64,000 bases of DNA, from assembly GCA_947584295.1 (NCBI GenBank), contig CANPWM010000002.1:7937-71936 (forward strand). The letters are read 5' to 3'. Source of the stretch: an uncultured Oscillospiraceae bacterium (lineage in GTDB: Bacteria; Bacillota; Clostridia; Oscillospirales; Oscillospiraceae). How positions within the stretch are numbered: the first letter of the stretch is position 1; each line of letters starts with the position of its first letter. This document shows, one piece after another, positions 1 to 63,982 of the stretch. Made by a program: the position numbers and the translations under genes. The notes beneath the pieces were generated by a model. It did not search any database, had not been told where the DNA came from, and saw only the letters and a program-made list of their open reading frames with translations.

Positions 1-1
1 C

Positions 2-133
2 GAGGTGAAGATGAAGGAGCAGGCCGGGGTCACCAGCCGCTGTATCCCCTTTGAACAGCACCACATCGGCGATGTCTGCCCCGTGTGCGGCAAGCCCGCC
101 CAGCACATGGTCATCTGGGGCATCGCCTACTGA
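2..133 (+). CDS. proS: proline--tRNA ligase, C-terminal fragment (5' end outside window)
   Basis: Open frame from the window edge to TGA at 131-133. The tail RCIPFEQHHIGDVCPVCGKPAQHMVIWGIAY* resembles the Cys-containing, Tyr-terminated C-terminus of archaeal-type ProRS. A hairpin terminator follows. Confidence 0.55.
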   Translation, partial: EVKMKEQAGVTSRCIPFEQHHIGDVCPVCGKPAQHMVIWGIAY

Positions 134-177
134 TCCGCCCCGCAAACCTATGGTAAATTAAATTGATTTTACAGACT

Positions 178-728: not shown

Positions 729-1004
729 TCAATCCTCGCTGTCGATGTAGATCTCCTCGTCGGGGTCGATAAAGCCAAGCTTCCGGGCGATGTCGCGGAT
801 AACGTCCTCCTCCGCGCTATGCTCGATGTCATACTGCATACCGTCCACGCTGGCGGCAAGCTGGGCCTCGTAGCTCTTCAGCTCCTCAAGCTCGCTTCGC
901 TTTTGCTTTTCCAGGTCGCTTTGGCCGATCTTCGTCACCAGCGCGTACACCAGCAGGACCGCCAGGACGATCTTCGTAAGTATACCTGTACGTCTTAACC
1001 GCAT
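729..1004 (-). CDS. divIC: septum formation initiator family protein (DivIC/FtsB)
   Basis: 91 aa with one N-terminal TM helix then a coiled coil (EKQKRSELEELKSYEAQL). Synteny yabP-yabQ-divIC-yabR. Confidence 0.8.
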   Translation of the reverse strand: MRLRRTGILTKIVLAVLLVYALVTKIGQSDLEKQKRSELEELKSYEAQLAASVDGMQYDIEHSAEEDVIRDIARKLGFIDPDEEIYIDSED

Positions 1005-1479
1005 CTTCCGTATCCCTCGCTTTGGGCGCGGAGCCGCGCCGTCTTTTGACAGCTATTATTGTAAACCTTTTTTTCGCAGATGAAAAGGCCTTTTTTAAAA
1101 TTCGTCGAAATTTTTTAAAACTTTTTTCCAAAACCCGTATCGGAGCGGCCAAAATGAACAGGATCCGGCCCACGATGCCCGCCAAAAAGGCGCCGAAGGC
1201 CAGGATCAGCGGGCTGACCGTCAAAAAATAGAGGACGGCCCCCAGGGCGGCCATGAGCTGGAGGAAGATCCTCTGCCGCCCGCCCCCGGCGGACAGCCCC
1301 AGGGCAAAGAGCATAAAGGCCGCCGCGATCCAGAATACGGCGTCCGTCACCCAGGTGACGGCCCGGCCCTTCACGCTCCGCCGCAGGATCCGCATCAGGT
1401 CGTAAAGCACCCCCGCAAAGACGCCGCACAGCAGGGCCGCCCCCGCCTCCGCCAGCTGTGAGCTTACGGTCACCTCCAT
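886..1479 (-). CDS. yabQ: spore cortex biosynthesis protein YabQ-like membrane protein
   Basis: Multi-TM N-terminal half, directly after yabP. The basic low-complexity C-terminal tail overlaps divIC by 119 nt, so the 3' extent is uncertain. Confidence 0.6.
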   Translation of the reverse strand: MEVTVSSQLAEAGAALLCGVFAGVLYDLMRILRRSVKGRAVTWVTDAVFWIAAAFMLFALGLSAGGGRQRIFLQLMAALGAVLYFLTVSPLILAFGAFLAGIVGRILFILAAPIRVLEKSFKKFRRILKKAFSSAKKRFTIIAVKRRRGSAPKARDTEDAVKTYRYTYEDRPGGPAGVRAGDEDRPKRPGKAKAKRA

Positions 1480-3141: not shown

Positions 3142-3176
3142 AGCAAGGCTTGCATAAAGAACCACTCAACCGGAAT

Positions 3177-3269
3177 GGAGAAGTCGCGTAGCCCGGTCGA
3201 GCGCGCACGATTGGAAATCGTGTAGGGGTCAAAAGCTCCTCGAGGGTTCGAATCCCTCCTTCTCCGCCA
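3177..3269 (+). tRNA. tRNA-Ser (anticodon GGA), CCA encoded
   Basis: Acceptor GGAGAAG/CTTCTCC; anticodon stem CACGA/TCGTG with loop TTGGAAA (anticodon GGA); long variable arm; T arm GAGGG-TTCGAAT-CCCTC; discriminator G plus CCA. Confidence 0.9.
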
Positions 3270-3274
3270 AAAAA

Positions 3275-3317
3275 AGCGTTGGAAGTGCTGGAAAGTCAGT
3301 AATTCCAACGCTTTTTC
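3275..3317 (+). terminator. intrinsic terminator after tRNA-Ser
   Basis: AGCGTTGGAA ... TTCCAACGCT stem followed by TTTTT. Confidence 0.75.
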
Positions 3318-3426
3318 ATTTGTTAACGCATGGTGGGAAAAAGCTCGAAATGGTGGGGTTATCGTGTAAAAATCGTGTAGTAGCCGCTCTTTTCTGGAGG
3401 GTTTTTTGAGTGAATAAAGGAGATTA

Positions 3427-3480
3427 TTTCAATCAGAAGGGGAACCCTGACGGTTCCCCTTCCCAACCCTTCCCTCCGAA
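3427..3480 (+). repeat. R1 palindromic repeat, copy 1
   Basis: GAAGGGGAACC-ctgac-GGTTCCCCTTC core plus the conserved tail CCAACCCTTCCCTCCGAA. Matches copies at 4298, 4348 and 24931 (reverse). Confidence 0.85.
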
Positions 3481-3517
3481 AACTGGGACACAGTAAAATA
3501 TTTGTCATGAAAAGCGC

Positions 3518-3546
3518 TTGCTATTGTCCGTACAATCGTGTATAAT
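3518..3546 (+). promoter_or_regulatory. promoter of the relB/parE operon
   Basis: TTGCTA, 17 bp, TATAAT (3541-3546). An AAAGGAG SD lies 8 nt before the ATG at 3577. Confidence 0.6.
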
Positions 3547-3576
3547 ATATATAGGAACTGAAAGGAGCTGCGGAAA

Positions 3577-9616: not shown

Positions 9617-10794
9617 GCGGGCCGGAAAAGCGCCCCTTCGCCGTGATGGCCAAGCCCGTAGGCTCCCGGTGCAATATGCGCTGCGCCTACTGCTACTATC
9701 TGGGCAAGGGCAAATACTCCGCCCACGCAAGGCAGACCCGCATGAGCTTCGATCTGCTGGAAAAGCTCATTCGTCAGGCGGTGGCCGCCTCCCCTGGCCC
9801 TGTGGTGTCCTTCACCTGGCACGGCGGGGAACCCACCCTGGCGGGGTTGGATTTCTACAAAAAGGCGGTGGAGCTTCAGCGGAAGGCCCTCCCCGCCGGG
9901 TGGACGGCCCTGAACAACCTGCAAACCAACGGCCTTCTGCTCAGCGACGCCTGGTGCGCCTTCTTGAAGGAGAGCCGCTTCGACGTGGGCCTCTCCGTGG
10001 ACGGCTCCCAGGCCGTCCACGACAAAAACCGCCGGGATCTGGGGGGCGCGCCCACCTTTCAGCGGGTGCGGGCCGCCGCCGCGCGGCTGAAGCGTCACGG
10101 TATCGAGCCGGATCTTCTCTGCACCGTCAACGCCGAGAGCCAGGAGCGGCCCTTAGAGGTCTACCGCGCCCTCCGGGCGCTGGGCAGCTCGTGGATACAG
10201 TTTATCCCCATCGTGGCCCGGGGGCCGGACGGGGCCGTAACGCCGGAATCCGTCTCCCCGGAGGGGTACGGCAGGTTCCTTAACGCCTGCTTTGACCAGT
10301 GGGTGGCCCACGACCTGGGCCGGGTGGACGTACAGCTCTTCGCCGAGGCCGCCCGGGTGCTGGCGGGGGGCGAGGCGTCCCTCTGCACCCAGCGGCCTGA
10401 CTGCGGCCGGGTGCCGGTGGTGGAGGAGGACGGGGCGGTGTACGCCTGCGACCACTTCGTAGACCCGGCCCACCGGCTGGGCTTCCTCTCCGCCGCGAGG
10501 CTGGAGAGCCTTGCCAACGGCGACCGGCAGACGGCCTTTGGCGGGGAAAAGGGCCGCCTCACCGCCCAGTGCCGCCGCTGTCCGCACCTTACGCTGTGCA
10601 ACGGCGGCTGTCCCAAGGATCGCTTCGCCCTGTCCGTGGACGGCGAGCCGGGCCAGCACTATCTCTGCCCCGGCATGGCGGCCTTTTTTGACCACGCCGC
10701 GCCCAGCCTCCGGCAGATGGCGGCGCTGAGCCGCCGGGGCCTGGGGCCGGAGGAGATCATGAACGAGATGAAAAAACAGGAGGAAAAGCTATGA
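9613..10794 (+). CDS. anaerobic sulfatase-maturating enzyme-type radical SAM/SPASM protein
   Basis: CxxxCxxC (CNMRCAYCYY), WHGGEPTLAG, LQTNG, and C-terminal SPASM cysteines (CDHF..., CRRCPHLTLCNGGCPKDR). Start overlaps the upstream stop (ATGA). Confidence 0.8.
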   Translation: MSGPEKRPFAVMAKPVGSRCNMRCAYCYYLGKGKYSAHARQTRMSFDLLEKLIRQAVAASPGPVVSFTWHGGEPTLAGLDFYKKAVELQRKALPAGWTALNNLQTNGLLLSDAWCAFLKESRFDVGLSVDGSQAVHDKNRRDLGGAPTFQRVRAAAARLKRHGIEPDLLCTVNAESQERPLEVYRALRALGSSWIQFIPIVARGPDGAVTPESVSPEGYGRFLNACFDQWVAHDLGRVDVQLFAEAARVLAGGEASLCTQRPDCGRVPVVEEDGAVYACDHFVDPAHRLGFLSAARLESLANGDRQTAFGGEKGRLTAQCRRCPHLTLCNGGCPKDRFALSVDGEPGQHYLCPGMAAFFDHAAPSLRQMAALSRRGLGPEEIMNEMKKQEEKL

Positions 10795-11525
10795 TAAAGA
10801 CCGTCGTCCTTGCCGCCGGTAAGGGGACAAGGCTGGCCCAGGAGGGCATCGACCAGCCCAAGGCCATGCGTCTGGCCCTGGGAAAGCCCCTGTTGGGGTG
10901 GGTGTTGGACGCCCTGCCCACGGGGAAAAGCGACACCGTGCTGGTGGTGGGCTACAAGAAGGAGTACATTCTGGAGGCCTTCCCGGAGTACCCCCACGCC
11001 GAGCAGACCCAGCAGCTTGGCACCGGCCACGCCGTGATGTGCGCCGTTCCGGCCCTGGGAGATTACCGGGGGGACGTGCTTATCTGCTGCGGGGATATGC
11101 CCCTGGTGCGGCCCGAGACTTACAGGGCCTTGGTGGAGGAACACCAAAAAAGCGGCGCCGTCTGCACGGTGCTGTCCGGCGTCTCCGAGGAGCCGCTGCC
11201 CTTCGGGCGGGTGATCCGGGACGAAAACGGCGATTTTGACCGCATCGTGGAGGACCGGGACTGCACCCCGGCGGAAAAGGCCTGCCGGGAGCTGAACTCC
11301 GGGATCCTGGCGGTGGACTTTCGGAAGATGGTCTCCGCCCTTTCGGAGCTGCGCACCGACAACGCCCAGGGGGAGTATTACCTCACCGACCTGCCCCGGA
11401 TCCTCAAGGAGCGCGGGGAGAAGGTGGCCGTCTGCGCCCGGAACATGGGCGAGGAGCTGATCGGCGTGAATACCCCCGCCCAGCTTGCCCAGGTGGAGGG
11501 CCTTTTAAGGGCGCGCTCGCGCTGA
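10791..11525 (+). CDS. sugar-phosphate nucleotidyltransferase (GlmU N-terminal-like, no acetyltransferase domain)
   Basis: VVLAAGKGTRL P-loop-like signature, QLGTGHAV, CGDMPL, EYYLTD. Start overlaps the upstream stop. Confidence 0.75.
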   Translation: MIKTVVLAAGKGTRLAQEGIDQPKAMRLALGKPLLGWVLDALPTGKSDTVLVVGYKKEYILEAFPEYPHAEQTQQLGTGHAVMCAVPALGDYRGDVLICCGDMPLVRPETYRALVEEHQKSGAVCTVLSGVSEEPLPFGRVIRDENGDFDRIVEDRDCTPAEKACRELNSGILAVDFRKMVSALSELRTDNAQGEYYLTDLPRILKERGEKVAVCARNMGEELIGVNTPAQLAQVEGLLRARSR

Positions 11526-11564: not shown

Positions 11565-11593
11565 ATTATACCATAAGCTATTTTTATTGTCAA
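11565..11593 (-). promoter_or_regulatory. near-consensus sigma-A promoter (copy D), antisense to the nucleotidyltransferase gene
   Basis: Minus strand reads AAAAAATAATTATTTTTTTGAAAAAAGTA-CTTGACA-17 bp-TGGTATAAT. The predicted TSS is about 33 nt beyond the stop codon at 11525, pointing into the gene. Confidence 0.6.
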
Positions 11594-11652
11594 GTACTTT
11601 TTTCAAAAAAATAATTATTTTTTAGCTTTATTTATTTTGCCCCATTTTTTAC

Positions 11653-11681
11653 TTGACAAGGCGGGGGCAGTCTGCTATAAT
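11653..11681 (+). promoter_or_regulatory. consensus sigma-A promoter of the TPP riboswitch-thiT unit
   Basis: TTGACA (11653-11658), 17 bp, TGC-TATAAT (11676-11681), AT-rich UP region. Confidence 0.8.
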
Positions 11682-11687
11682 CTCATC

Positions 11688-11838
<151 letters not shown>

Positions 11839-13408: not shown

Positions 13409-13548
13409 AAAACGCTCCGGCAATCGGAGCGTGAGACTGTCGAAAAAGGCCGCTGGCCTTTTCCGACAAAGGGGAACGTGCGGGATTTTTTCCGACGTAC
13501 ATGCCGCCGGAAAAAACGTCAAATTTGAGTTTCTTGACAAGCTGAACT

Positions 13549-25400: not shown

Positions 25401-25433
25401 GGCGTTCCCCCCAGGGAGAACGCCGCATTTTTT
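25401..25433 (+). promoter_or_regulatory. terminator-like hairpin in the asnB leader (possible attenuator)
   Basis: GGCGTTCCCC-cca-GGGAGAACGCC followed by GCATTTTTT, ending 7 nt before the GGAGG SD of asnB. TGTTCTCA (25351) and TGAGAACA (25391) could form an alternative pairing. Confidence 0.4.
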
Positions 25434-25446
25434 GGAGGTATCGTCT

Positions 25447-27264
25447 ATGTGTGGGATCGCTGGACAGATCGGCGGGGAGATCCAGCCGCTTCTGTCTGTT
25501 TTCGGGGATATGCAGGCCTCGCTCTCCCGGCGGGGGCCGGATCAGCGGGGAATGGCGCTGTCGGACACGGCGGCGCTGATCCACGCCCGGCTGGCGGTGA
25601 TGGATCCGGAGAACGGGCGGCAGCCCATGGTCTACGGCCCCTTCACCCTCCTCTACAACGGGGAGCTTTACAACACGCCGGAGCTGCGCCGGGAGCTGAC
25701 GGCCCTGGGCCACGGCTTTGAGACGCGCTCGGATACGGAGGTGCTGCTCCACGCCTTCGCCCAGTGGGGCGAGGGGGCGGTGGATAAGCTCAACGGCATC
25801 TATGCCTTTGCGGTGTGGGACGCCCAGCGCCGCCGGGTCTTTCTCTGCCGGGATCGTATGGGCGTCAAGCCCCTTTTCTACGCCCGCCGCCGGGGGGCGC
25901 TGCTGTTCGCCTCGGAGCTGAAGGCCCTGCTGCGCCACCCCTGGGTGGAGCCGGAGGTCACCCGCCAGGGGCTGGCGGAGCTTCTGCTGTTGGGGCCGGG
26001 CCGGGTGCCGGGGAGCGGCGTATTCAAGGACATTTTTGAGCTTCTCCCCGGCCAGTGCGGCTTCTTTGAGCCGGACACCGGCGCGCTGACCCTCCGCCGG
26101 TACTGGCGCCTCACCGACGCGCCCTGCCAGGACACCTTCCCCCAAGCGGCGGAGAAGGTGCGGGCGCTGGTGACCGACGCCATCACCCGCCAGCTTGTGT
26201 CCGACGTGCCGCTGTGTACCTTCCTGTCCGGGGGGCTGGACTCCTCCCTGATCTCCGCCGTGGCCGACGGGGAATACGTCCGGGCGGGCCGCAGTCTGGA
26301 CACGGTCTCGGTGGACTATTTGGACAACGCCCGGTATTTCAGGGCCGGGAAATTCCAGCCCACAGCGGATCCCGCCTTCATTGAGATCATGGCCAATTTC
26401 CTCCACGGCCGCCACCACCTGATCACCCTGGACACCCCGGAGCTGGTGTCCGCGCTCTACGAGGCCGTGGAGGCCCGGGATCTGCCGGGCATGGCGGACG
26501 TAGACTCCTCCCTCCTCCTCTTCTGCCGGGAGATCAAAAAGCTGGCCACCGTGGCCGTCTCCGGGGAGTGCGCCGACGAGATCTTCGGCGGCTACCCCTG
26601 GTACCGGGATCCCACGATCCGGGAGCGGGAGGGCTTCCCCTGGGCCCAGTCCACGGCCTGGCGGGCCTCCTTCGTAAAGGACGGCGTGCTGGACGTGGAA
26701 CCCGGCGAATTTGTGGACTACTATTACCGCAAGACCTGCCGGGAGAGCGATATTCTCCCCGGCACAAGCCCCCTGGAAACCCGCATGAAGCAGATGATGA
26801 ACCTGAACGTGGACTGGTTCATGCAGACGCTTTTAGACCGCAAGGACCGCATGAGCATGTGGTCCAGCCTGGAGGTGCGCGTCCCCTTCTGCGACCACCG
26901 CATCGCGGAGTATCTCTACACCGTCCCCTGGGCGTACAAGGATCACGGCGGGGTGGAAAAGGGCCTTCTGCGGGAGGCCATGCGGGGCGTACTGCCGGAG
27001 GAGGTCCTCTGGCGCAAGAAAAGCCCCTACCCCAAGACCCACAACCCGGCCTACCTCCAGGCGGTGAACCGGGAGCTGGAGGCGGTCATCGCGGACAGGA
27101 GCCAGCCCCTCCACGACCTTGTCCGGGAGGACGCGCTGCGGGCGCTGATGGTCTCCGACCGGGCCGTTCCCTGGTACGGCCAGCTGATGACCACCCCCCA
27201 GACCGTGGCCTGGTTCTTGCAGCTCAACCACTGGCTGAAAACATACAAGGTGAAAATCCTCTGA
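25447..27264 (+). CDS. asnB: asparagine synthase (glutamine-hydrolysing)
   Basis: Starts MCGIAG (the Ntn Cys2 nucleophile requires this start). SGGLDSS PP-loop motif. Confidence 0.9.
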   Translation: MCGIAGQIGGEIQPLLSVFGDMQASLSRRGPDQRGMALSDTAALIHARLAVMDPENGRQPMVYGPFTLLYNGELYNTPELRRELTALGHGFETRSDTEVLLHAFAQWGEGAVDKLNGIYAFAVWDAQRRRVFLCRDRMGVKPLFYARRRGALLFASELKALLRHPWVEPEVTRQGLAELLLLGPGRVPGSGVFKDIFELLPGQCGFFEPDTGALTLRRYWRLTDAPCQDTFPQAAEKVRALVTDAITRQLVSDVPLCTFLSGGLDSSLISAVADGEYVRAGRSLDTVSVDYLDNARYFRAGKFQPTADPAFIEIMANFLHGRHHLITLDTPELVSALYEAVEARDLPGMADVDSSLLLFCREIKKLATVAVSGECADEIFGGYPWYRDPTIREREGFPWAQSTAWRASFVKDGVLDVEPGEFVDYYYRKTCRESDILPGTSPLETRMKQMMNLNVDWFMQTLLDRKDRMSMWSSLEVRVPFCDHRIAEYLYTVPWAYKDHGGVEKGLLREAMRGVLPEEVLWRKKSPYPKTHNPAYLQAVNRELEAVIADRSQPLHDLVREDALRALMVSDRAVPWYGQLMTTPQTVAWFLQLNHWLKTYKVKIL

Positions 27265-27318
27265 AAAGCCGAAATGCCGCGGCTCCCCTTTCCGGGGAGC
27301 CGCGGGGCCGCGTAAAGG

Positions 27319-27352
27319 AAAGCGGATATCCGAAAGGAATATCCGCTTTGCC
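27319..27352 (+). terminator. hairpin terminator between asnB and trkH
   Basis: GCGGATATCC-gaaa-GGAATATCCGC followed by TTTGCCGTTTGTTT. A second GC hairpin without a T-run lies at 27276-27305. Confidence 0.6.
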
Positions 27353-27393
27353 GTTTGTTTACAAAAAATTAATTATTTTTATAATATTTTTAC

Positions 27394-27422
27394 TTGACAT
27401 ATGGGGGAGCGTATGGTATAAT
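27394..27422 (+). promoter_or_regulatory. near-consensus sigma-A promoter (copy A), antisense to trkH
   Basis: ACAAAAAATTAATTATTTTTATAATATTTTTA-CTTGACA-17 bp-TGGTATAAT. The predicted TSS is about 26 nt outside the trkH stop (27455), pointing into trkH. 39/41 identity of UP+-35 with copy B. Confidence 0.6.
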
Positions 27423-27454
27423 CCAAAGCGTAGGGGGAAGTGCGCCTATCGGGG

Positions 27455-28894
27455 TCACTTCCGCCAGGTGGCGGGGCGGAGCATCAGCAGCAGAGGGAAG
27501 ATCTCCAGGCGTCCGGCCAGCATATCGAACATCAGCACCAGCTTTGACAGGGCCGAGTAGTCGCCGAAGTTCCCGGAGGGCCCCACCAGGCTCAGGCCGG
27601 GGCCGATGTTGTTCAGGGTAGCGGCCACGGCGGAAAAGTTGGTGGTGAAGTCGAAGTTATCTATGCTGATGATGAGCATGGAGCCGAAAAACACGGCGAT
27701 ATACGCCAGGAGCCAGCTGTTGACCGAGTGGATCATGCGGCTCTCCAGCGCCTTGCCGTCCAGGCGCACCACGGTGACGGAGCGGGGGTGGATCATGCGC
27801 CGCAGCTCCCTGCCGATGCTCTTGAAGTACATCAGCACCCGGCTGACCTTGATGCCGCCGCCGGTGGAACCGGCGCAGGCACCCACGAACATAAGGCAGA
27901 TGAGGACCGTCTTGGAGAAGGTGGGCCACAGGTCAAAATCCACGCTGGTGAAGCCCGTGGTGGTCATGATGGAGGAACACTGGAAGGCGGCGTGGAGAAG
28001 GGCGTAGCCCGGATCCGCGCCCCCCTGGGCCATCAGGTTCACCGTCACCAGGGCCATGGCCGCCAGGAAGATCAGCAGGTACCCCCGCACCTCCTCCATA
28101 GCCAGGGCGGAGCGGAACTTGCGGATCAGCAGGAAGAAGTAGAAGTTGAAATTGACGCCGAAGGCGAACATGAACACCGTCACCACGATCTGGACGAAGG
28201 GGGAGTAGCTGGCGAAGGAATCGTTGAGGATACCGAAGCCGCCGGTACCGGCGGTGCCGAAGGAGACGCACAGGGCGGAGAAGAGATCCAGCTTCCCTAT
28301 AAGGAGGATCCCCACCTCCAGGAGCGTCATGCCCAGGTAGATGCCGTAGAGGTACACGGCGGTCCTCTGGAGCCGCGGCACCAGCTTGCCCACGCTGGGG
28401 CCGGGGGACTCGGCGCGCATGATGAGGATACTCTGGCCGCCGGCCATGGGCAGCAGGGCCAGCAGGAACACCAAAACGCCCATGCCGCCGATCCAGTGGG
28501 TGAAGCTGCGCCAGAAAAGGAGCGAGCGGGGCATGGCCTCCACGTCGGAGAGGATAGACGCGCCGGTGGTGGTAAAGCCGGACACCACCTCGAAAAGCGC
28601 GTCCACAAAGCGGGGGATACACCCGGAGATGAAAAAGGGCAGCGCCCCGGCCAGGGACAGGAAGATCCACGAAAGCGCCGTGGCCACAAAGCCCTCCCGG
28701 GCGTAAAACGCCTGATTTTTCGGCCTTTTCGCGGCCATTGCCACCCCCGGCAGGGCCGTGGCGGCGATGGCGATCAGGTAGTCCAAGGCGTAAGGCTCGC
28801 CGTAGCCCAGGCACAGGCCCAGGGGGATCAGCAGAAAGGCCGCCTCGATGCACAGCACCCAGCCCACCAGCCAGCGGATAAAGGAATAGTTCAT
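27455..28894 (-). CDS. trkH: TrkH/KtrB family potassium uptake membrane protein
   Basis: 479 aa, multi-TM, with repeated selectivity-filter-like TTTGF/GTAGTGGFG/STGGGIK segments. Confidence 0.9.
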   Translation of the reverse strand: MNYSFIRWLVGWVLCIEAAFLLIPLGLCLGYGEPYALDYLIAIAATALPGVAMAAKRPKNQAFYAREGFVATALSWIFLSLAGALPFFISGCIPRFVDALFEVVSGFTTTGASILSDVEAMPRSLLFWRSFTHWIGGMGVLVFLLALLPMAGGQSILIMRAESPGPSVGKLVPRLQRTAVYLYGIYLGMTLLEVGILLIGKLDLFSALCVSFGTAGTGGFGILNDSFASYSPFVQIVVTVFMFAFGVNFNFYFFLLIRKFRSALAMEEVRGYLLIFLAAMALVTVNLMAQGGADPGYALLHAAFQCSSIMTTTGFTSVDFDLWPTFSKTVLICLMFVGACAGSTGGGIKVSRVLMYFKSIGRELRRMIHPRSVTVVRLDGKALESRMIHSVNSWLLAYIAVFFGSMLIISIDNFDFTTNFSAVAATLNNIGPGLSLVGPSGNFGDYSALSKLVLMFDMLAGRLEIFPLLLMLRPATWRK

Positions 28895-28907: not shown

Positions 28908-30278
28908 TCACTTCAGGATATCGTTGATGGACTGGAGCTTCCGGGCGGTGGTGACCAGCACCACGGTGTCGCCCTGGCGGATCTGGTCGTTGCCGCGGGG
29001 AATGATGAGCTGGCCGCCCCGGTAGATACAGCAGATCAGCAGGTCGGGGATCATGCGGGGGCGCAGCTCGGAGAGGGGGACGTTGGTAACGGCGCTGTCG
29101 GCGTTGATGTGGAATTCCAGCGCCTCCACGCGCCTGCCCGCCAGGTAGTAGAGGGACTCGATGTTGCTGGAGTCGGAGGAGTTGGACATGGCCCGCACAT
29201 ACCGGAGTATGCTGTACGCCGTGATCTCCTTGGGGTTGATGATGCTCCCTACGGGCAGCTCCTCGGTGACCTCGGTGAAGCCGAAGGTGGACACCTTGGT
29301 GATGGCCCGGACCTGGGAGATCTTCTTGGCGTACAGGGCCAGGAGGATATTCTCCTCGTCCATATCCGTCAGCGGCACGAACACGTCCTCGCCGGTGATG
29401 CCCTCCTCCAGCAGCAGCTGGCGGTCGATGGCGTCGCCGCAGATGATCTCCGCCCCGGGCAGCTGGGCGGAGAGGCCCTCGCACACGGCCCTATTCTTCT
29501 CGATGATCTTCACCCGGCTGCCGGAGGCCAGCAGCATATCCGCCAGGTAGTAGCCCGTCCTGCCCCCACCGATGATCATGACGTTCCGGGTGGGCCTGGT
29601 CTGGAAGCCCAGGCGCTTGAAGAGCGTCGCCATCTCCCGGGGCGGGGTGATGATGTAGATCCTGTCCCCGGCCTTCAGGACGGTGTCGCCGCGGGGGATC
29701 TCCACCTCACGGGTGCGGCCCCGCTCCAGGATACAGATCAGCGTCCCCTTAGATATCTTCCCGGGGAAGTCCATCACCTTGATATTGTCCGCCGGGGAAC
29801 CCTCGGGTATGATGATCTCGATCATATTCACCCGGCCCTTGGCAAAGGACTCGTGGGTTTGGGCGCCGGGGATCTGGATAAGGTCGAAGATCTCCCCGGC
29901 GGTGGCGGACTCGGGGTTTATGGCCATGGACAGGCCCAGCTCGTCCTTGAGCAGATTGATCTCCCGGTAGTAGACGGGGTTGCGCACGCGGGCGATGGTC
30001 TGACAGCCGGAGAGCTTCTTGGCCATAAGACAGCACAGCATATTGACCTCGTCCTGGTCGGTGACGGCGATCAGCAGATGGGCGGAGGCGATGCCCGCCT
30101 CCTCCAGTATCTCATGGGAGACACCGTTGCCGGCGATGCCCTGCACGTCTATCTTTTCCAGGGCGGAGTTGAGCCTTTCGGCGTTGGTGTCGATGAGGGT
30201 GATCTGATGCCCCTCGGCGTTGAGATTGTCCGCCAGCGAATAGCCCACGCCGCCGGCCCCCACAATGATGATGTTCAA
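28908..30278 (-). CDS. trkA: Trk system potassium uptake protein TrkA (tandem RCK)
   Basis: Two Rossmann motifs (IIIVGAGGVGYSLA and IIGGGRTGYYLA). TTG start at 30278 with an AGGAGG SD 8 nt upstream; the longer ORF to 30587 has no homology-like N-terminus. Confidence 0.85.
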   Translation of the reverse strand: MNIIIVGAGGVGYSLADNLNAEGHQITLIDTNAERLNSALEKIDVQGIAGNGVSHEILEEAGIASAHLLIAVTDQDEVNMLCCLMAKKLSGCQTIARVRNPVYYREINLLKDELGLSMAINPESATAGEIFDLIQIPGAQTHESFAKGRVNMIEIIIPEGSPADNIKVMDFPGKISKGTLICILERGRTREVEIPRGDTVLKAGDRIYIITPPREMATLFKRLGFQTRPTRNVMIIGGGRTGYYLADMLLASGSRVKIIEKNRAVCEGLSAQLPGAEIICGDAIDRQLLLEEGITGEDVFVPLTDMDEENILLALYAKKISQVRAITKVSTFGFTEVTEELPVGSIINPKEITAYSILRYVRAMSNSSDSSNIESLYYLAGRRVEALEFHINADSAVTNVPLSELRPRMIPDLLICCIYRGGQLIIPRGNDQIRQGDTVVLVTTARKLQSINDILK

Positions 30279-30408
30279 GGACGGTTCCTCCTGAAACGCA
30301 CATTTTTCTATTTTGCATTGTAGCACAAAGCAAAAATATTTCAACCCTTGACGCCGGTTTTTGCGGGTGTAAAATACAAATGATACAGGTACGCGGGGAG
30401 GCGCGATC

Positions 30409-31089
30409 ATGCGGTACGACAATATCCGGGCGGGCGTTTTTCTCAGCCGCCCCAACCGATTCATCGCCCATGTGGACGTGGACGGGCGCACGGAGGTCTG
30501 CCACGTCAAAAATACGGGCCGCTGCCGGGAGCTGCTTGTCCCCGGGGCCGCCGTGTGGCTGACGGAGAGCGCCAACAGCGCCCGCAAGACCCGCTATGAC
30601 CTGGTGGCCGTCCAAAAGGGCGAACGGCTCATCAACATGGACGCCGCCGCCCCCAACCGGGTCTTTGGGGAGTACCTGGCCGCCGGTCTCCTGCTCCCCT
30701 CCCCCACCCTCATAAGGCCGGAGACGCGCTTCGGGGACTCCCGGCTGGACTTCTACGTGGAAAACGGCGAGTCCCGCGCCTTCTGCGAGGTCAAGGGCGT
30801 GACCCTGGAGCGGGACGGCGCCGCCCTTTTCCCGGACGCGCCCACCGAACGCGGCGTCCGGCACCTGGGGGAGCTTGCCCGGTGCGTGGAGGCCGGCTTT
30901 TCCGCCTGGGCCGTCTTTGTGATCCAGATGGAGGGCGTAGACTATTTCGCCCCCAACCGGGAGACCCACCCCGCCTTCGCCGACGCCTTACGGGCCGCCC
31001 GGGACGCCGGCGTACACCTCCTGGCCCTGGATTGCCGCGTCACCCCGGACAGCCTTACCGCCCGGAAGCAGGTGGAGATCCGCCTGTGA
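30409..31089 (+). CDS. sfsA: sugar fermentation stimulation protein SfsA
   Basis: 226 aa. RPNRFIAHVDVDGR...CHVKNTGRCRELL and FCEVKGVTL pattern. Confidence 0.9.
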   Translation: MRYDNIRAGVFLSRPNRFIAHVDVDGRTEVCHVKNTGRCRELLVPGAAVWLTESANSARKTRYDLVAVQKGERLINMDAAAPNRVFGEYLAAGLLLPSPTLIRPETRFGDSRLDFYVENGESRAFCEVKGVTLERDGAALFPDAPTERGVRHLGELARCVEAGFSAWAVFVIQMEGVDYFAPNRETHPAFADALRAARDAGVHLLALDCRVTPDSLTARKQVEIRL

Positions 31090-52419: not shown

Positions 52420-53055
52420 GTGAAAGTCCCTTCCGCCGTGCCGTTTTATGGGACGGCGGCTGTGTGCGCGCTGTGGTGCCTCCTTTTGCCCCTCTATAAG
52501 CTGTGGCATCTTCTGGTGTTCCTGGCCGCGCTCCTGGGGACGTATTTTCTGCTGAAAAAGCTCTTCCCCGGCACGGAGAAGGTCATTGACGTGCCTGAGC
52601 CGGAGCCGGAACCCACCGGGAACCCGGAGGTGGACGCCCTGACCCGGGAGGGAAAGCAGGCCGTGGCGGAGCTTCGCCGCCTGCGCGGCTCCATTCGGGA
52701 GCCGTCTGTCCGCAGCCGGGTCGAGGAGCTTGCGTCCCTGACGGAGAAGATCTTCGCCGACGTGGTGGACGACCCCCAGGACGTGCCGCAGGTGAAGCGG
52801 TTCGCCGGGTATTACCTGCCCACCACCATGAAGCTGCTGAACGCCTACGACCGCATGAGCGGCCAGGGCGCGGGCGACAACGTCAGCGGCACGCTGAAGC
52901 GCATCGAGGATATCCTGGATACCACCGTCGCCGCCTACCGCAAGCAGTACGACGCCCTCTTCGCCAACGAGGCCCTGGATATCGAGACGGATATCACCGT
53001 GCTGGAGTCCATGCTGAAGCGCGAGGGCCTGAGCGGGAAGGATTTTAACGTGTGA
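52420..53055 (+). CDS. xpaC: 5-bromo-4-chloroindolyl phosphate hydrolysis protein XpaC-like
   Basis: Two N-terminal TM helices then a helical domain, placed directly upstream of telA as in the Bacillus xpaC-yaaN pair. GTG start with a weak SD, so the start is uncertain. Confidence 0.65.
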   Translation: MKVPSAVPFYGTAAVCALWCLLLPLYKLWHLLVFLAALLGTYFLLKKLFPGTEKVIDVPEPEPEPTGNPEVDALTREGKQAVAELRRLRGSIREPSVRSRVEELASLTEKIFADVVDDPQDVPQVKRFAGYYLPTTMKLLNAYDRMSGQGAGDNVSGTLKRIEDILDTTVAAYRKQYDALFANEALDIETDITVLESMLKREGLSGKDFNV

Positions 53056-53072
53056 GCCTTTTCACTGTCTGT

Positions 53073-53101
53073 ATTATACCACAGGCGGAAGCAAATGTCA
53101 A
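53073..53101 (-). promoter_or_regulatory. near-consensus sigma-A promoter (copy C), antisense to xpaC
   Basis: Minus strand reads AAAAAATAATAAAAAATAATTAAAATAATG-CTTGACA-17 bp-TGGTATAAT. The predicted TSS is about 11 nt beyond the xpaC stop (53055), pointing into xpaC. Confidence 0.6.
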
Positions 53102-53176
53102 GCATTATTTTAATTATTTTTTATTATTTTTTCAGTCGTCCAAAACGGCTAATCCAAACAGAAAGGCAGAATTGAC

Positions 53177-54349
53177 ATGAACGAGCAGGAATACGTACCC
53201 ACCCTGACCTTCGCCTCCACCCCGGTGACTCCGGCGGATCAGCAGGCGGCCGCCCAGACAGCCGCCGCCCAGGCCGCGGCGGAGCCGGAGGCCCCTGTCG
53301 TCACCGCCACCCAGCACGAGGAGAGCCAGCTCTCCGAGGCGGAGCTGAAGGCGGTGGAGGAGTTCTCCAAGAAGATCGACATCACCGACTCCAACGCCGT
53401 TTTGCAGTACGGCGCGGCCAGCCAGAAGAACATCGCCGACTTCTCCGGCACCACCCTCCAGAACGTCCGCACCAAGGACATGGGCCAGGTGGGCGATATG
53501 CTCTCAGACCTGGTGGTGGAGCTGAAGGGCTTCAACTACGGCGAGGAGGAGAAGAAGGGGCTTTTCGGCATCAAGCGGAAGATGGAGAAGCAGATCGCCT
53601 CCCTGAAGGCCCAGTACGACAAGGCCGAGGGGAACGTGGACAAGATCGCCGGTATGCTGGAGCAGCACCAGATCACCCTGCTGAAAGACGTGGCCACCCT
53701 GGACAAGATGTATGACCTGAACCTGGCCTACTACAAAGAGCTGACCATGTATATCCTGGCCGGTAAGAAAAAGCTGAAGGAATGTGAGGAGGTGGAGCTT
53801 CCCCGCCTCCAGGAGAAGGCCAGGACCTCCGGGCTTCCCGAGGACGCCCAGGCGGTGAACGACTATCAGAACATGATCACCCGCTTTGACAAGAAGCTCC
53901 ACGATCTGGAGCTGACGCGAATGATCTCCGTCCAGATGTCCCCCCAGATCCGCCTTATCCAGAATAACGACACCCTGATGGTGGAAAAGATACAGACGTC
54001 CCTGGTGAACACCATTCCCCTGTGGAAGAGCCAGATGGTGCTGGCCTTGGGCCAGGCCCACTCCCAGCAGGCCATGCAGGCCCAGCGGGAGGTCACCAAC
54101 ATGACCAACGAGCTTCTGAAGAAGAACGCCGAGATGCTGAAGATGGGCTCCGTGGAGATCGCCAAGGAGTCCGAGCGGGGCATCGTGGATATCGAGACGC
54201 TGAAGGCCACCAACCAGTCCCTCATCGAGACGCTGGAGGAGGTGCGCACCATCCAGGTGGAGGGCGCCGCCAAGCGCCGTCAGGCGGAGGCCGAGCTGGG
54301 CAAGATCGAGTCCGACCTGAAGGCCAAGCTCCTGGAGATCAATAAATGA
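53177..54349 (+). CDS. telA: toxic anion resistance protein TelA family
   Basis: 390 aa, all-helical, long coiled segments. Family-typical region DITDSNAVLQYGAASQKNIADFSG... Confidence 0.85.
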   Translation: MNEQEYVPTLTFASTPVTPADQQAAAQTAAAQAAAEPEAPVVTATQHEESQLSEAELKAVEEFSKKIDITDSNAVLQYGAASQKNIADFSGTTLQNVRTKDMGQVGDMLSDLVVELKGFNYGEEEKKGLFGIKRKMEKQIASLKAQYDKAEGNVDKIAGMLEQHQITLLKDVATLDKMYDLNLAYYKELTMYILAGKKKLKECEEVELPRLQEKARTSGLPEDAQAVNDYQNMITRFDKKLHDLELTRMISVQMSPQIRLIQNNDTLMVEKIQTSLVNTIPLWKSQMVLALGQAHSQQAMQAQREVTNMTNELLKKNAEMLKMGSVEIAKESERGIVDIETLKATNQSLIETLEEVRTIQVEGAAKRRQAEAELGKIESDLKAKLLEINK

Positions 54350-62227: not shown

Positions 62228-62369
62228 GTCATCACCTCATCAATGTATATACGGAAAGTATACCAGCTTTTCGCCGGTGTTTCAATACCTCCGCTTTGTT
62301 TGTTTGCATAAAAGTTCCCGCCGATTCTCTCCCCGGTTTTGGTCAAAGATGAATTTCTGTATATAAAAC

Positions 62370-62398
62370 TTGCAATTTTTCCTATGGGGGATTATAAT
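62370..62398 (+). promoter_or_regulatory. sigma-A promoter of citrate synthase
   Basis: TTGCAA, 17 bp, TATAAT (62393-62398). Confidence 0.6.
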
Positions 62399-62443
62399 AA
62401 ATCCTGTATCACGGGGATATTCCCCGGCTGTAACCCTCGGAAA

Positions 62444-63823
62444 ATGAAAGAAGGAGTCATTTTGGATTCAAAATTGACAGCTTCGCGGGAATACGCGGAT
62501 CTGATAACCGGCAACCTTATGAACCACTACCGTATCCCCGGCTCCGCCTATGATGAGAACGTCAAGCGGGGGCTTCGGAACGCCGACGGCTCCGGCGTCA
62601 TCGCGGGCGTCTCCAAGATCGGCTCCGTTCGCGGCTACTACATCGAGGACGGCCAGCGCGTCCCCCACGAGGGCAAGCTTTTCTACCGGGGCTATGACGT
62701 GGAGGACATCGTCAACGCCCACCGCAGGGCGGACACCTTCGGCTATGAGGAGGTGGCCTATCTGCTGCTGTGCGGCTCCCTGCCCACCCAGGCCCAGCAG
62801 GAGCAGTTCGTGGAGATCCTCTCCGCCGCCAAGGCCCTGCCCGACGGCTTTTTTGAGAACGAGCTGATGAAGCGGCCCAGCCCCAACATCATGAACGCCA
62901 TCTCCCGGGCGGTGGTGAGCCTGTACGCCTACGACGACAACCCCGACGACACCTCCGTGGTGAACGTCCTCCGGCAGTCCATCGAGCTGATCGCCCGTAT
63001 GCCCACCATCGTGGCCCACACCTACGCCATGAAGCGGCATTATTACGACGGGGCGTCCCTCTATATCCACAACCCCAAATCCGACCTGACCCTGGCGGAG
63101 AACTTCCTGCGGCTGGCCCGACGGGACAAGAGCTACACCGACAAGGAGGCAAAGCTCTTAGACTGCCTGATGATGCTCCACGCCGAACACTCCGGCGGCA
63201 ACAACTCCACCTTCGTCTGCCGCGCCGTCACCTCCACCGGGGCCGACACCTACGGCGCTATTGCCGCCGCCATCAACTCCCTGAAGGGCCCCCTCCACGG
63301 CGGCGCCAACGAGGCTGTCATGCACATGGTGGCGGATATCCTGGCCCACGTCAAAGATCCCCGGGACGACGACGAGGTGGGCGCGTATCTGGATAAGATC
63401 CTGGACGGCAAGGCCAATGACCGCTCCGGCAAGCTCTACGGCCTGGGCCACGCCGTCTATACCGTCTCCGACCCCCGCGCCGTCACCATCAAGGAGCTGA
63501 TCGCCGAGATGGCCGAGACAAAGGGGTACAGCGACGAGTTCCTGATCGCCGAGCGGGTGGAGCGCCTGGGCGTCTCCAAGCTCATGGCCCGCAAGGGCAA
63601 GTCCATGCCTATCCCCGCCAATGTGGATCTCTACTCCGGCATCGTCTATAAGATGCTGGGGATCCCGGAGGATCTGTATACCCCCCTCTTTGCCGTCTCC
63701 CGGATCTCCGGCTGGTGCGCCCACCGGCTGGAGGAGCTGATCACCTCCGGCCGGATCATGCGCCCCGCCTACCGCTCCGCCGCCACCCGGCAGAAATATA
63801 TCCCCATCGGCGAACGCAGGTAA
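62444..63823 (+). CDS. gltA: citrate synthase
   Basis: LLCGSLPT, MLHAEHSGGNNSTF, GPLHGGANE, YGLGHAVY motifs. The in-frame TTG at 62462 has the better SD (GAAGGAG), so the start is uncertain by 6 codons. Confidence 0.9.
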   Translation: MKEGVILDSKLTASREYADLITGNLMNHYRIPGSAYDENVKRGLRNADGSGVIAGVSKIGSVRGYYIEDGQRVPHEGKLFYRGYDVEDIVNAHRRADTFGYEEVAYLLLCGSLPTQAQQEQFVEILSAAKALPDGFFENELMKRPSPNIMNAISRAVVSLYAYDDNPDDTSVVNVLRQSIELIARMPTIVAHTYAMKRHYYDGASLYIHNPKSDLTLAENFLRLARRDKSYTDKEAKLLDCLMMLHAEHSGGNNSTFVCRAVTSTGADTYGAIAAAINSLKGPLHGGANEAVMHMVADILAHVKDPRDDDEVGAYLDKILDGKANDRSGKLYGLGHAVYTVSDPRAVTIKELIAEMAETKGYSDEFLIAERVERLGVSKLMARKGKSMPIPANVDLYSGIVYKMLGIPEDLYTPLFAVSRISGWCAHRLEELITSGRIMRPAYRSAATRQKYIPIGERR

Positions 63824-63873
63824 CAGTTGACCAGAGAGGCCCGAAAAACGGGCTTCCCTCCTACGCAGTTTGG

Positions 63874-63902
63874 ATTATACCACAAGGGTGCTTATTTGTC
63901 AA
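63874..63902 (-). promoter_or_regulatory. near-consensus sigma-A promoter (copy B), antisense to citrate synthase
   Basis: Minus strand reads CACAAAAAATTAATTATTTTTATTATATTTTTA-CTTGACA-17 bp-TGGTATAAT-CCAAACTGCGTAGGAGGGAAG. The predicted TSS is about 44 nt beyond the gltA stop, pointing into gltA. Confidence 0.6.
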
Positions 63903-63948
63903 GTAAAAATATAATAAAAATAATTAATTTTTTGTGAACAACGGGCGA

Positions 63949-63982
63949 GAGCCGCCGGGTGATCCGGCGGCTCCGCTTTTTT
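63949..63982 (+). terminator. intrinsic terminator (probable end of the gltA transcript)
   Basis: GAGCCGCCGG-gtgat-CCGGCGGCTC followed by CGCTTTTTT. It lies beyond the antisense promoter, so the sense 3' UTR would span that promoter. Confidence 0.75.

Follow-up and report, generated by a model that had tools for sequence, protein, structure and literature searches.

What is a full-consensus promoter for when it lies just past the stop codon of a gene and points back into that gene? The question is raised by a promoter module, called here copy A, in a stretch of 64,000 nt (the window) from an uncultured Oscillospiraceae bacterium (GenBank assembly GCA_947584295.1, contig CANPWM010000002.1, positions 7,937 to 71,936, forward strand), where it is located between the convergent genes asnB and trkH and faces the 3′-end of trkH. 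A sequence-only reading had noticed this module, had paired it with a near-identical second one (copy B) close to the end of the window, and had proposed a duplicated or mobile promoter module or a small family of cis-antisense RNA genes. The module has a four-part anatomy and belongs to a multi-copy family, its promoter elements are under selection, and its copies are biased in orientation toward gene 3′-ends. The reading preferred here, in which we place even confidence, is that it may be a member of a clade-specific family of portable sigma-A promoter cassettes for cis-antisense transcription or interference at gene 3′-ends; the firing of the promoters, a regulatory effect of the antisense transcription and a shared regulator are what we infer.

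Anatomy of the cassette in copies A and B

The features at the asnB/trkH junction are the following, with coordinates given as positions of the window.

27357–27432, plus strand: copy A module (sequence reading and promoter scan)
27357–27399, plus strand: upstream block GTTTACAAAAAATTAATTATTTTTATAATATTTTTACTTGACA, an A/T-rich UP-like tract including the −35 TTGACA (27394–27399)
27400–27413, plus strand: 14-nt spacer TATGGGGGAGCGTA
27414–27432, plus strand: extended −10 and discriminator TGGTATAATCCAAAGCGTA, with TATAAT at 27417–27422
27433–27465, plus strand: hairpin GGGGGAAGTG / CACTTCCGCC (inverted repeat and fold)
27455–28894, minus strand: trkH, the gene faced by copy A (Pfam TrkH match)
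28908–30587, minus strand: trkA, beyond trkH (Pfam)
25432–27264, plus strand: asnB (Pfam)
27319–27349, no strand assigned: hairpin AAAGCGGATAT / ATATCCGCTTT (inverted repeat), having a T-rich tail on each strand and abutting the upstream edge of copy A

Copy A was scored by the promoter scan at 12/12 with TG, its 17-bp spacer between TTGACA and TATAAT including TGG, in agreement with the consensus promoter that had been read at 27394–27422, behind an UP-like tract. Copy B, likewise 12/12 with TG and a 17-bp spacer, lies on the minus strand and faces a citrate synthase gene.

63939–63862, minus strand: copy B module (sequence reading and promoter scan)
63897–63939, minus strand: upstream block from GTTCAC to TTGACA, with the −35 at 63902–63897
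63862–63896, minus strand: spacer (63896–63883) followed by TGGTATAATCCAAACTGCGTA, with TATAAT at 63879–63874
62339–63823, plus strand: citrate synthase, the gene faced by copy B (Pfam; stop codon 63821–63823)
63949–63982, plus strand: strong intrinsic terminator GAGCCGCCGG..CCGGCGGCTC followed by TTTTTT, beyond copy B (stem 63949–63973, T6)

A 37-mer running through the −35, AAAAAATTAATTATTTTTATWATATTTTTACTTGACA, occurs exactly twice in the window versus 0.00 times expected from shuffled sequence, and shuffles of the copy A and copy B regions yielded about 0.3 promoter-like sites, versus the 12/12 sites with TG that are observed. Both copies possess the block GTTYACAAAAAATTAATTATTTTTATWATATTTTTACTTGACA, then unlike 14-nt spacers (5/14 identical), and then the identical TGGTATAATCCAAA; from GTTYAC to TTGACA the block is identical at 42 of 44 positions, and the start region, GCGTAGGGGGAAG in A versus GCGTAGGAGGGAAG in B, is conserved with a 1-nt indel. 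The sequence-only reading had counted 39/41 matches through the UP element and −35, a figure reproduced by hand, and its claims of a common −10 sequence and a conserved initial transcribed segment hold as well, the latter apart from the indel.

Across the family the cassette, about 80 bp long, begins with an A/T-rich upstream block of 44 nt whose last bases are TTGACA; there follow a spacer with fixed length and free sequence, an extended −10 (TRTGRTATAMT), and a short conserved discriminator/start region, TCCRAA(GCGTA). TTGACA and, 17 bp on, TATAAT or TATACT are present in all 17 copies, the −10 being preceded by TGG or TGA in every one, with TGTG or TATG in many. The left boundary is sharp at GTTYAC, and the right boundary fades about 10–14 nt past the −10. 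Judged by its sequence, the cassette is a sigma-A (sigma-70-type) housekeeping promoter with an extended −10.

Other promoter-like sites are found inside the block, namely a tandem site, TTYACA-16-TATNAT, and one on the reverse strand, TTGTCA-17-AATAAT (10/12). In copy A these appear as a weaker TTTACA-16-TATAAT (27358–27385) and as ATGTCA-17-AATAAT (27400–27372), respectively. The block is conserved base for base over 38 A/T-rich positions, which exceeds the needs of an UP element and may reflect either a shared DNA-binding regulator or overlapping constraints from the tandem and reverse sites, both being possible. Sites for CodY, Rex, ComK, Spo0A and LexA, compared by eye only, gave no fit beyond a half-site.

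Pairing between the spacer and the transcript start was considered as a general feature and rejected, being strong in one locus only, L023 (L numbers designate loci in other assemblies). There (3290–3340, minus strand) the complementarity between the spacer and the first transcribed bases is perfect, AATCGCCTCTGTGG...CCATAGAGGCGATT with a T-rich tail behind it, which places the −10 in the loop of a terminator-like hairpin; the same-strand gene whose end lies 14 nt upstream of the module could use this hairpin as its terminator.

The transcription start of copy A is predicted, from spacing alone, at about 27428–27430, and with a start near 27429 the distance to the trkH stop codon is 26 nt. The predicted antisense RNA would carry the hairpin at 27433–27465 at its 5′-end; this hairpin overlaps the stop codon (27455–27457). 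The trkH reading frame ends at 27455 as had been stated, and the hairpin that had been named as its possible terminator is indeed outside the module; with its T-rich tails, this hairpin (27319–27349) probably terminates in both directions, serving asnB (+) as well as trkH (−). For copy B the start is predicted near 63867, about 44 nt from the stop codon of citrate synthase, a protein of 453 amino acids by the start called in another assembly. Since both copies are located between the stop codon of the faced gene and a terminator on the strand of that gene, they probably lie inside its 3′ untranslated region (UTR); for copy A, the hairpin has a T-run on the trkH strand, and the earlier placement in the trkH 3′ UTR stands.

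The window ends just past copy B, with the glpK start just outside, and the locus was therefore extended through L041, from another assembly of the same organism that was reached through the aconitase gene. The order there is citrate synthase (+), a weak hairpin, the module (−), the strong plus-strand terminator, the glpK promoter and glpK (+). Thus, the description of copy B as lying at an unlinked locus has to be qualified: it is not simply unlinked, as it sits between citrate synthase (+) and glpK (+), upstream of the strong plus-strand terminator (63949–63973).

Distribution, placement and conservation of the family

A scan of the genome collection with a 25-nt piece of the block gave 14 further loci, all in four metagenome-assembled genomes (MAGs) of uncultured rabbit-gut (‘Lapin’) Oscillospiraceae, nine of them in a single MAG. 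Canonical copies total at least 17, in at least six related genomes, and the module is thus repeated as the sequence-only reading had supposed. Outside the query, both the 19 nt upstream of the search pattern and the −10 block were conserved in every match, and the spacer was always 14 nt with variable sequence.

Searches farther afield returned no members. In viral contigs the pattern TTGACA-N14-TGGTATAATCCAAA gave eight matches, all unrelated promoters without the upstream block, so that a match to the −10/CCAAA part alone is not diagnostic. A pattern of proximal UP tract plus core gave nine matches in the JGI metagenome contigs, all generic promoters of lower-GC organisms, and the family is not represented in the JGI collection scanned. 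BLAST of the module against phages and plasmids yielded chance A/T matches only and no homologue. Rfam 15, at the gathering score, identified in the window and the 14 loci only thiamine pyrophosphate (TPP) riboswitch, tRNA and OLE matches, none at the module, and a permissive Rfam scan of 27200–27800 returned sub-threshold chance matches only. The OLE match, unrelated to the module, is the 3′ part of an ornate large extremophilic RNA at 1–148 (+) of L024 (102 bits).

For the placement of the copies, genes were called with a caller based on G+C content at third codon positions (GC3) and checked against Pfam and the gene calls attached to the contigs. The next downstream gene is on the opposite strand in 11 of the 13 independent canonical loci (binomial p=0.011 versus 0.5), and the bias is far more extreme against the expectation for ordinary promoters. 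An absence of bias toward gene 3′-ends had been named beforehand as the outcome that would count against an antisense family; 11 of 13 loci were found to face an opposite-strand 3′-end, an outcome that speaks for the sequence-only reading. The predicted start is 20–55 nt from the faced stop codon in most of the 11 loci and 103–136 nt in two; in L012 the distance is 250 nt because an insertion of about 200 nt, resembling a miniature inverted-repeat transposable element (MITE), intervenes. Conventional placement was observed only in L017 (U32 peptidase) and L019 (M23 peptidase), 2 of the 13 loci. Tandem gene pairs carry the cassette too (copy B, L011/L015, L024 at argR-recN, and xpaC-telA), and there it points back at the upstream gene.

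The same tendency is seen among the promoters of the window. Four of the five strongest (12/12, TG, A/T-rich upstream tract) face a gene 3′-end, and those scoring 10–11/12 are in the conventional position in front of genes. Three diverged relatives of the module were located.

11565–11633, minus strand: TTGACA-17-TGGTATAAT with upstream tract AAAAAATAATTATTTTT, 12/12 with TG
11603–11682, plus strand: conventional promoter, found with the nhmmer profile of the family (E=1.3e-6)
53073–53132, minus strand: A/T UP tract, TTGACA at 53101–53096, 17-bp spacer and TGGTATAAT at 53081–53073 (window-wide promoter scan)

The minus-strand relative at 11565–11633 points into the 3′-end of a gene (10791–11525, +) for a MobA-like nucleotidyltransferase, and the one at 11603–11682 is the promoter of the TPP riboswitch (11683–11790) and a thiamine transporter gene; within 11565–11681 the two 12/12 TG promoters stand back to back about 60 bp apart with one common A/T-rich upstream tract. 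The third relative is located between xpaC (52420–53055, +) and telA (53177–54349, +) and points back into xpaC, with a start predicted about 11 nt from the xpaC stop codon. It is kept in L044 and L045 (96% and 91% TelA identity), where the flanks have diverged, and is missing from L046 (90% TelA identity; 9982–10001), in which only 18 nt separate the xpaC stop from the telA start. This difference among relatives shows that the xpaC-telA cassette can come or go as a unit. In the window the interval 53056–53176 amounts to an insert of about 100 nt with an antisense consensus promoter at the xpaC-telA junction, probably an operon. A tRNA-Ser(GGA) gene (3177–3269, +) is also preceded by a 12/12 promoter, without TG (start predicted near 3148), an ordinary strong promoter unrelated to the module.

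Sites shared between genomes show which parts of the cassette are retained. Loci at the asnB/trkH junction were found via TrkH homologues in relatives. In the closest relative, L034 (TrkH 96% identical, third codon positions 81%), copy A occupies the same site; compared with the window, the block is identical at 43/44 positions, the −10 at 8/9 and the spacer at 6/14, and no alignment is possible for the rest of the intergenic DNA. Relatives at 74–87% TrkH identity do not possess copy A. L011 and L015, one locus in two MAG species with 70% identity at third codon positions, agree at 44/44 positions of the block and at 3/14 of the spacer. Throughout the shared-site pairs the −10 is identical at 8–9 of 9 positions, overall identity for block and −10 is about 98–100%, and the orientation is the same in all shared-site copies across assemblies. 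As the contact elements are conserved and the spacer is fixed in length but free in sequence, the promoter appears to be under purifying selection, and gene conversion is an unlikely source of the block identity because the spacer differs in each copy. The pattern thus indicates selection on the promoter elements, not recent copying.

The spacer and the −10 variant (TATAAT/TATACT) differ at shared sites more than third codon positions do, with spacer mismatches of 8/14 at the 81% third-position baseline and 11/14 at the 70% baseline. This excess divergence of the spacer and other intergenic DNA might come from the constraint that a strong codon bias places on third positions (GC3 about 0.9), from rapid turnover of intergenic sequence, from selection that adjusts promoter strength, or from copies exchanging sequence.

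A second interspersed repeat was observed in these genomes. It is a MITE-like nested palindrome that begins with CTTGTCAAAAAACTCAAATTCGATATTTTTTCCGGCGRCATGYRCGTCGGAAAAA, ends with GGGCTTTTTCGACAG and contains a variable internal hairpin module, and it occurs at 13431–13545 of the window and in L012 (3170–3360), L022 (about 3320–3560), L023, L037 and L038 (downstream of trkH). It fills the same trkH-downstream intergenic region in relatives without copy A, and in L012 it lies between the promoter module and the end of the faced gene.

The predicted transcript and the role of the cassette

An opposite-strand promoter just past the stop codon and pointing into the gene, as expected for a cis-antisense RNA, is found at A and B and in all at 11 of the 13 independent loci; a defined 3′-end of a discrete RNA was not found for most copies, A and B included. 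Copies A and B share only about 14 nt of predicted transcript, after which each has a hairpin of its own that overlaps or adjoins the stop codon of the faced gene, and sequence past about +12 is unrelated between copies. Subgroups sharing about 10–14 nt after the −10 are formed by A, B, L015, L022 and L034, and by L021, L023 and L024. The term cis-antisense RNA genes was therefore an overstatement, as no conserved payload extends past about 10 nt and no consistent terminator follows. Downstream small open reading frames (ORFs), a 35-amino-acid GTG ORF at 27440–27547 and one of 38 amino acids in B, were rejected as payload, since they begin inside or too near the promoter and are not shared with L034.

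One group of loci has a longer common transcript. L013, L014, L020 and the non-orthologous L018 share a transcribed segment of about 85 nt ending in GCCGTTTTTT, which folds into a long hairpin with a terminal U-run. It lies at 2700–2790 (−) of L013, 1610–1700 (−) of L014, 815–900 (−) of L020 and 960–1050 (+) of L018, is about 95% conserved in the four genomes and in three of them overlaps the last ten or so codons of a 254-aa gene. This segment, without Rfam match, could be a candidate discrete small RNA.

The forward promoter is very probably functional. On the preferred reading, the block would act as an UP element or operator, and RNA polymerase would start about 7 nt past the −10, mostly running straight into the last codons of the opposite-strand gene; in the window, copy A would hit trkH-trkA and copy B citrate synthase. 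A cis-antisense RNA over the 3′-end of the mRNA would result, and polymerases would collide head-on; both effects may reduce or reshape what the faced gene expresses, or shield that gene from the adjacent one. Through the near-invariant block, one factor could control all copies jointly. Whether antisense transcription or interference is the role for which the cassette was selected, we regard as evenly poised. A bolder version, tentative and rather doubtful, would see a domesticated, interchangeable antisense promoter part with a shared 44-nt operator, placed behind dozens of unrelated genes, each time just past the stop codon, and also at operon junctions (xpaC-telA, argR-recN), so that one regulator could dial down or uncouple all of them by head-on transcription, the strength of each copy being tuned through the spacer and TATAAT/TATACT.

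Several points weigh against the preferred reading. The sample is small and a pattern search yielded most copies. Credible intrinsic terminators were absent within 400 nt in the forward direction from most copies, A and B included, and a scan of the reverse direction found no consistent one among copies; with no consistent terminator past the predicted start, the length of the antisense RNA is undefined. The promoters of L017, L019 and the TPP riboswitch drive genes normally, and antisense placement is thus not obligatory. The faced genes (trkH, citrate synthase, argR, rubrerythrin, lipoproteins, htrA-like, xpaC) have no common functional theme, and a constitutive consensus promoter aimed into housekeeping genes looks costly. 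In addition, given the reverse site and the lack of any other promoter fitting the divergent gene in L011/L015 and L024, part of the conservation may serve the opposite direction.

This last point leads to an alternative in which the A/T block would chiefly be a two-way node of regulation. It could serve as the operator of a global DNA-binding protein, as a bidirectional promoter, or as an insulator against read-through for the gene upstream of the module, with the forward promoter as a partner element and the antisense RNA as a by-product. The tandem TTYACA-16-TATNAT and reverse TTGTCA-17-AATAAT sites are within the block, nearly all 44 positions are conserved, which exceeds the need of an UP element, the pair at 11565–11681 is truly back to back with a common upstream tract, and in L011/L015 (lipoprotein gene) and L024 (recN) the ribosome-binding site of the divergent gene is 12–45 nt from the block, leaving no space for another promoter. 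The invariant elements, however, are the forward ones; the reverse −35 has decayed to ATGTCA in two copies, A and L011, the reverse direction meets in A and B only terminator hairpins or the asnB 3′-end and no gene, and no credible promoter in the telA direction is visible on reading the xpaC-telA cassette. We consider a two-way node rather unlikely. Each copy might instead drive a small RNA that acts in trans, with its conserved 5′-end (e.g. GCGUAGGRGGGAAG) as the functional seed, which would fit the 10–14 nt common to the subgroups after the −10 and the 85-nt hairpin segment ending in GCCGTTTTTT in L013, L014, L020 and L018. We hold this to be very improbable, given that most copies, with A and B among them, have no forward terminator within 400 nt, that no Rfam match was obtained and sequence past about +12 is unrelated, and that the predicted start is in most copies only 20–55 nt from a coding region.

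A further alternative, unlikely in our estimation, is a selfish or neutral portable promoter repeat (a ‘putative mobile promoter’) that spread by duplication or insertion and survived where it does least harm, past gene ends, with no host function. Near-identical copies at many non-homologous loci, the empty site with 18 nt from stop to start in L046, the presence in L018 of the module along with some 85 nt after it that stem from copying of a different locus, the MITE-like repeat in intergenic regions of the same genomes, and the documented reuse of promoters (PMC3575422) are all compatible with it. Terminal inverted repeats, target-site duplications and phage or plasmid homologues are lacking, however; at shared sites the block and −10 are intact while spacer and flanks are randomised, which points to purifying selection and not to the decay of old insertions, and the unlike spacers speak against recent copying or homogenisation by gene conversion. 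Of the earlier proposal of a duplicated or mobile module, the related cassette with an empty site in one relative thus supports the mobile part, and with neither terminal inverted repeats nor target duplications this support is indirect.

Comparison with known systems

A cis-antisense RNA overlapping a 3′-end is familiar from GadY/gadX, a single locus with a defined small RNA. In C. acetobutylicum, the ubiG-mccBA operon is controlled by a convergent downstream promoter (Andre et al. 2008, PMC2566862); as with the cassette, this is a dedicated downstream promoter in the Clostridia whose RNA is antisense to a 3′-end, but ubiG-mccBA is a single locus with its own S-box leader, whereas the cassette is repeated and interchangeable. 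Excludons do not describe the family, since a same-strand gene beyond the faced gene exists for copy B (aconitase, 1.6 kb downstream) and L012, but at most loci the next two genes both lie on the opposite strand.

Promoter reuse and putative mobile promoters, defined as lying upstream of genes, have been documented (Nijveen, Matus-Garcia & van Passel 2012, PMC3575422). The cassettes are similar to these in being highly similar promoters at non-homologous loci within and between related genomes, but they are located downstream of genes and point backward in 11 of 13 loci, and a position in front of genes was observed only for L017, L019 and the relative at the TPP riboswitch. They also differ from the Correia, ERIC and REPIN elements named in that study in having neither terminal inverted repeats nor a palindromic body. 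MITEs and repeats derived from insertion sequences (Correia, ERIC, REPIN, BOX, RUP) were rejected for A and B on these grounds and for want of a target duplication; the only repeats around the two copies are the terminator hairpins and A/T self-complementarity, with no flanking inverted or direct repeats common to both. Invertons were likewise rejected, as no inverted repeats flank A or B and shared-site copies all have the same orientation.

With strong promoters of the rRNA type, which have an UP element or upstream curved DNA, the cassette shares full-consensus hexamers, a 17-bp spacer, TG, and an A/T tract at about −38 to −74. The UP-element consensus reportedly comes from Estrem and colleagues in 1998. 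The cassettes differ from rRNA-type promoters in not being followed by any rRNA, tRNA or highly expressed gene, and in an upstream tract of which 38 nt are conserved at each base, more than UP elements are known to require. We could not find in the literature a description of a homologous, multi-copy family of full-consensus promoters conserved across species and mostly antisense at gene 3′-ends.

It continues to be debated whether antisense transcription in bacteria serves regulation or is for the most part noise, and the nearest relatives in function are antisense promoters at 3′-ends. Engineered ones repress the gene, mainly by polymerase collisions (Brophy & Voigt 2016, PMC4731013), and antisense transcription in E. 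coli and B. subtilis starts preferentially near terminators, for which possible selection has been suggested (Harden et al. 2020, PMC6978322). The cassettes resemble both in being just past the stop codon, by a terminator and aimed into the gene, and collisions plus overlapping antisense RNA would be expected. They are situated, however, ahead of the terminator and not past it, in the interval after the stop codon. In E. coli and B. subtilis the natural sites are mutually unrelated and have a weak or atypical −35 (PMC6978322), whereas the cassettes are full-consensus, homologous, multi-copy and found across species; typical antisense promoters are weak, mutually unrelated and poorly conserved, and the family is the opposite on each count. 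Because the hosts are uncultured rabbit-gut Oscillospiraceae, metatranscriptomes or surrogate hosts would be needed to follow the promoters in action. If they fire, the family would offer a clean system for selection on antisense transcription, control by polymerase collision and promoter portability, and it would be the natural counterpart of the engineered 3′-end antisense parts, copy B in particular resembling the engineered ‘unidirectional terminator plus antisense promoter’ (PMC4731013).

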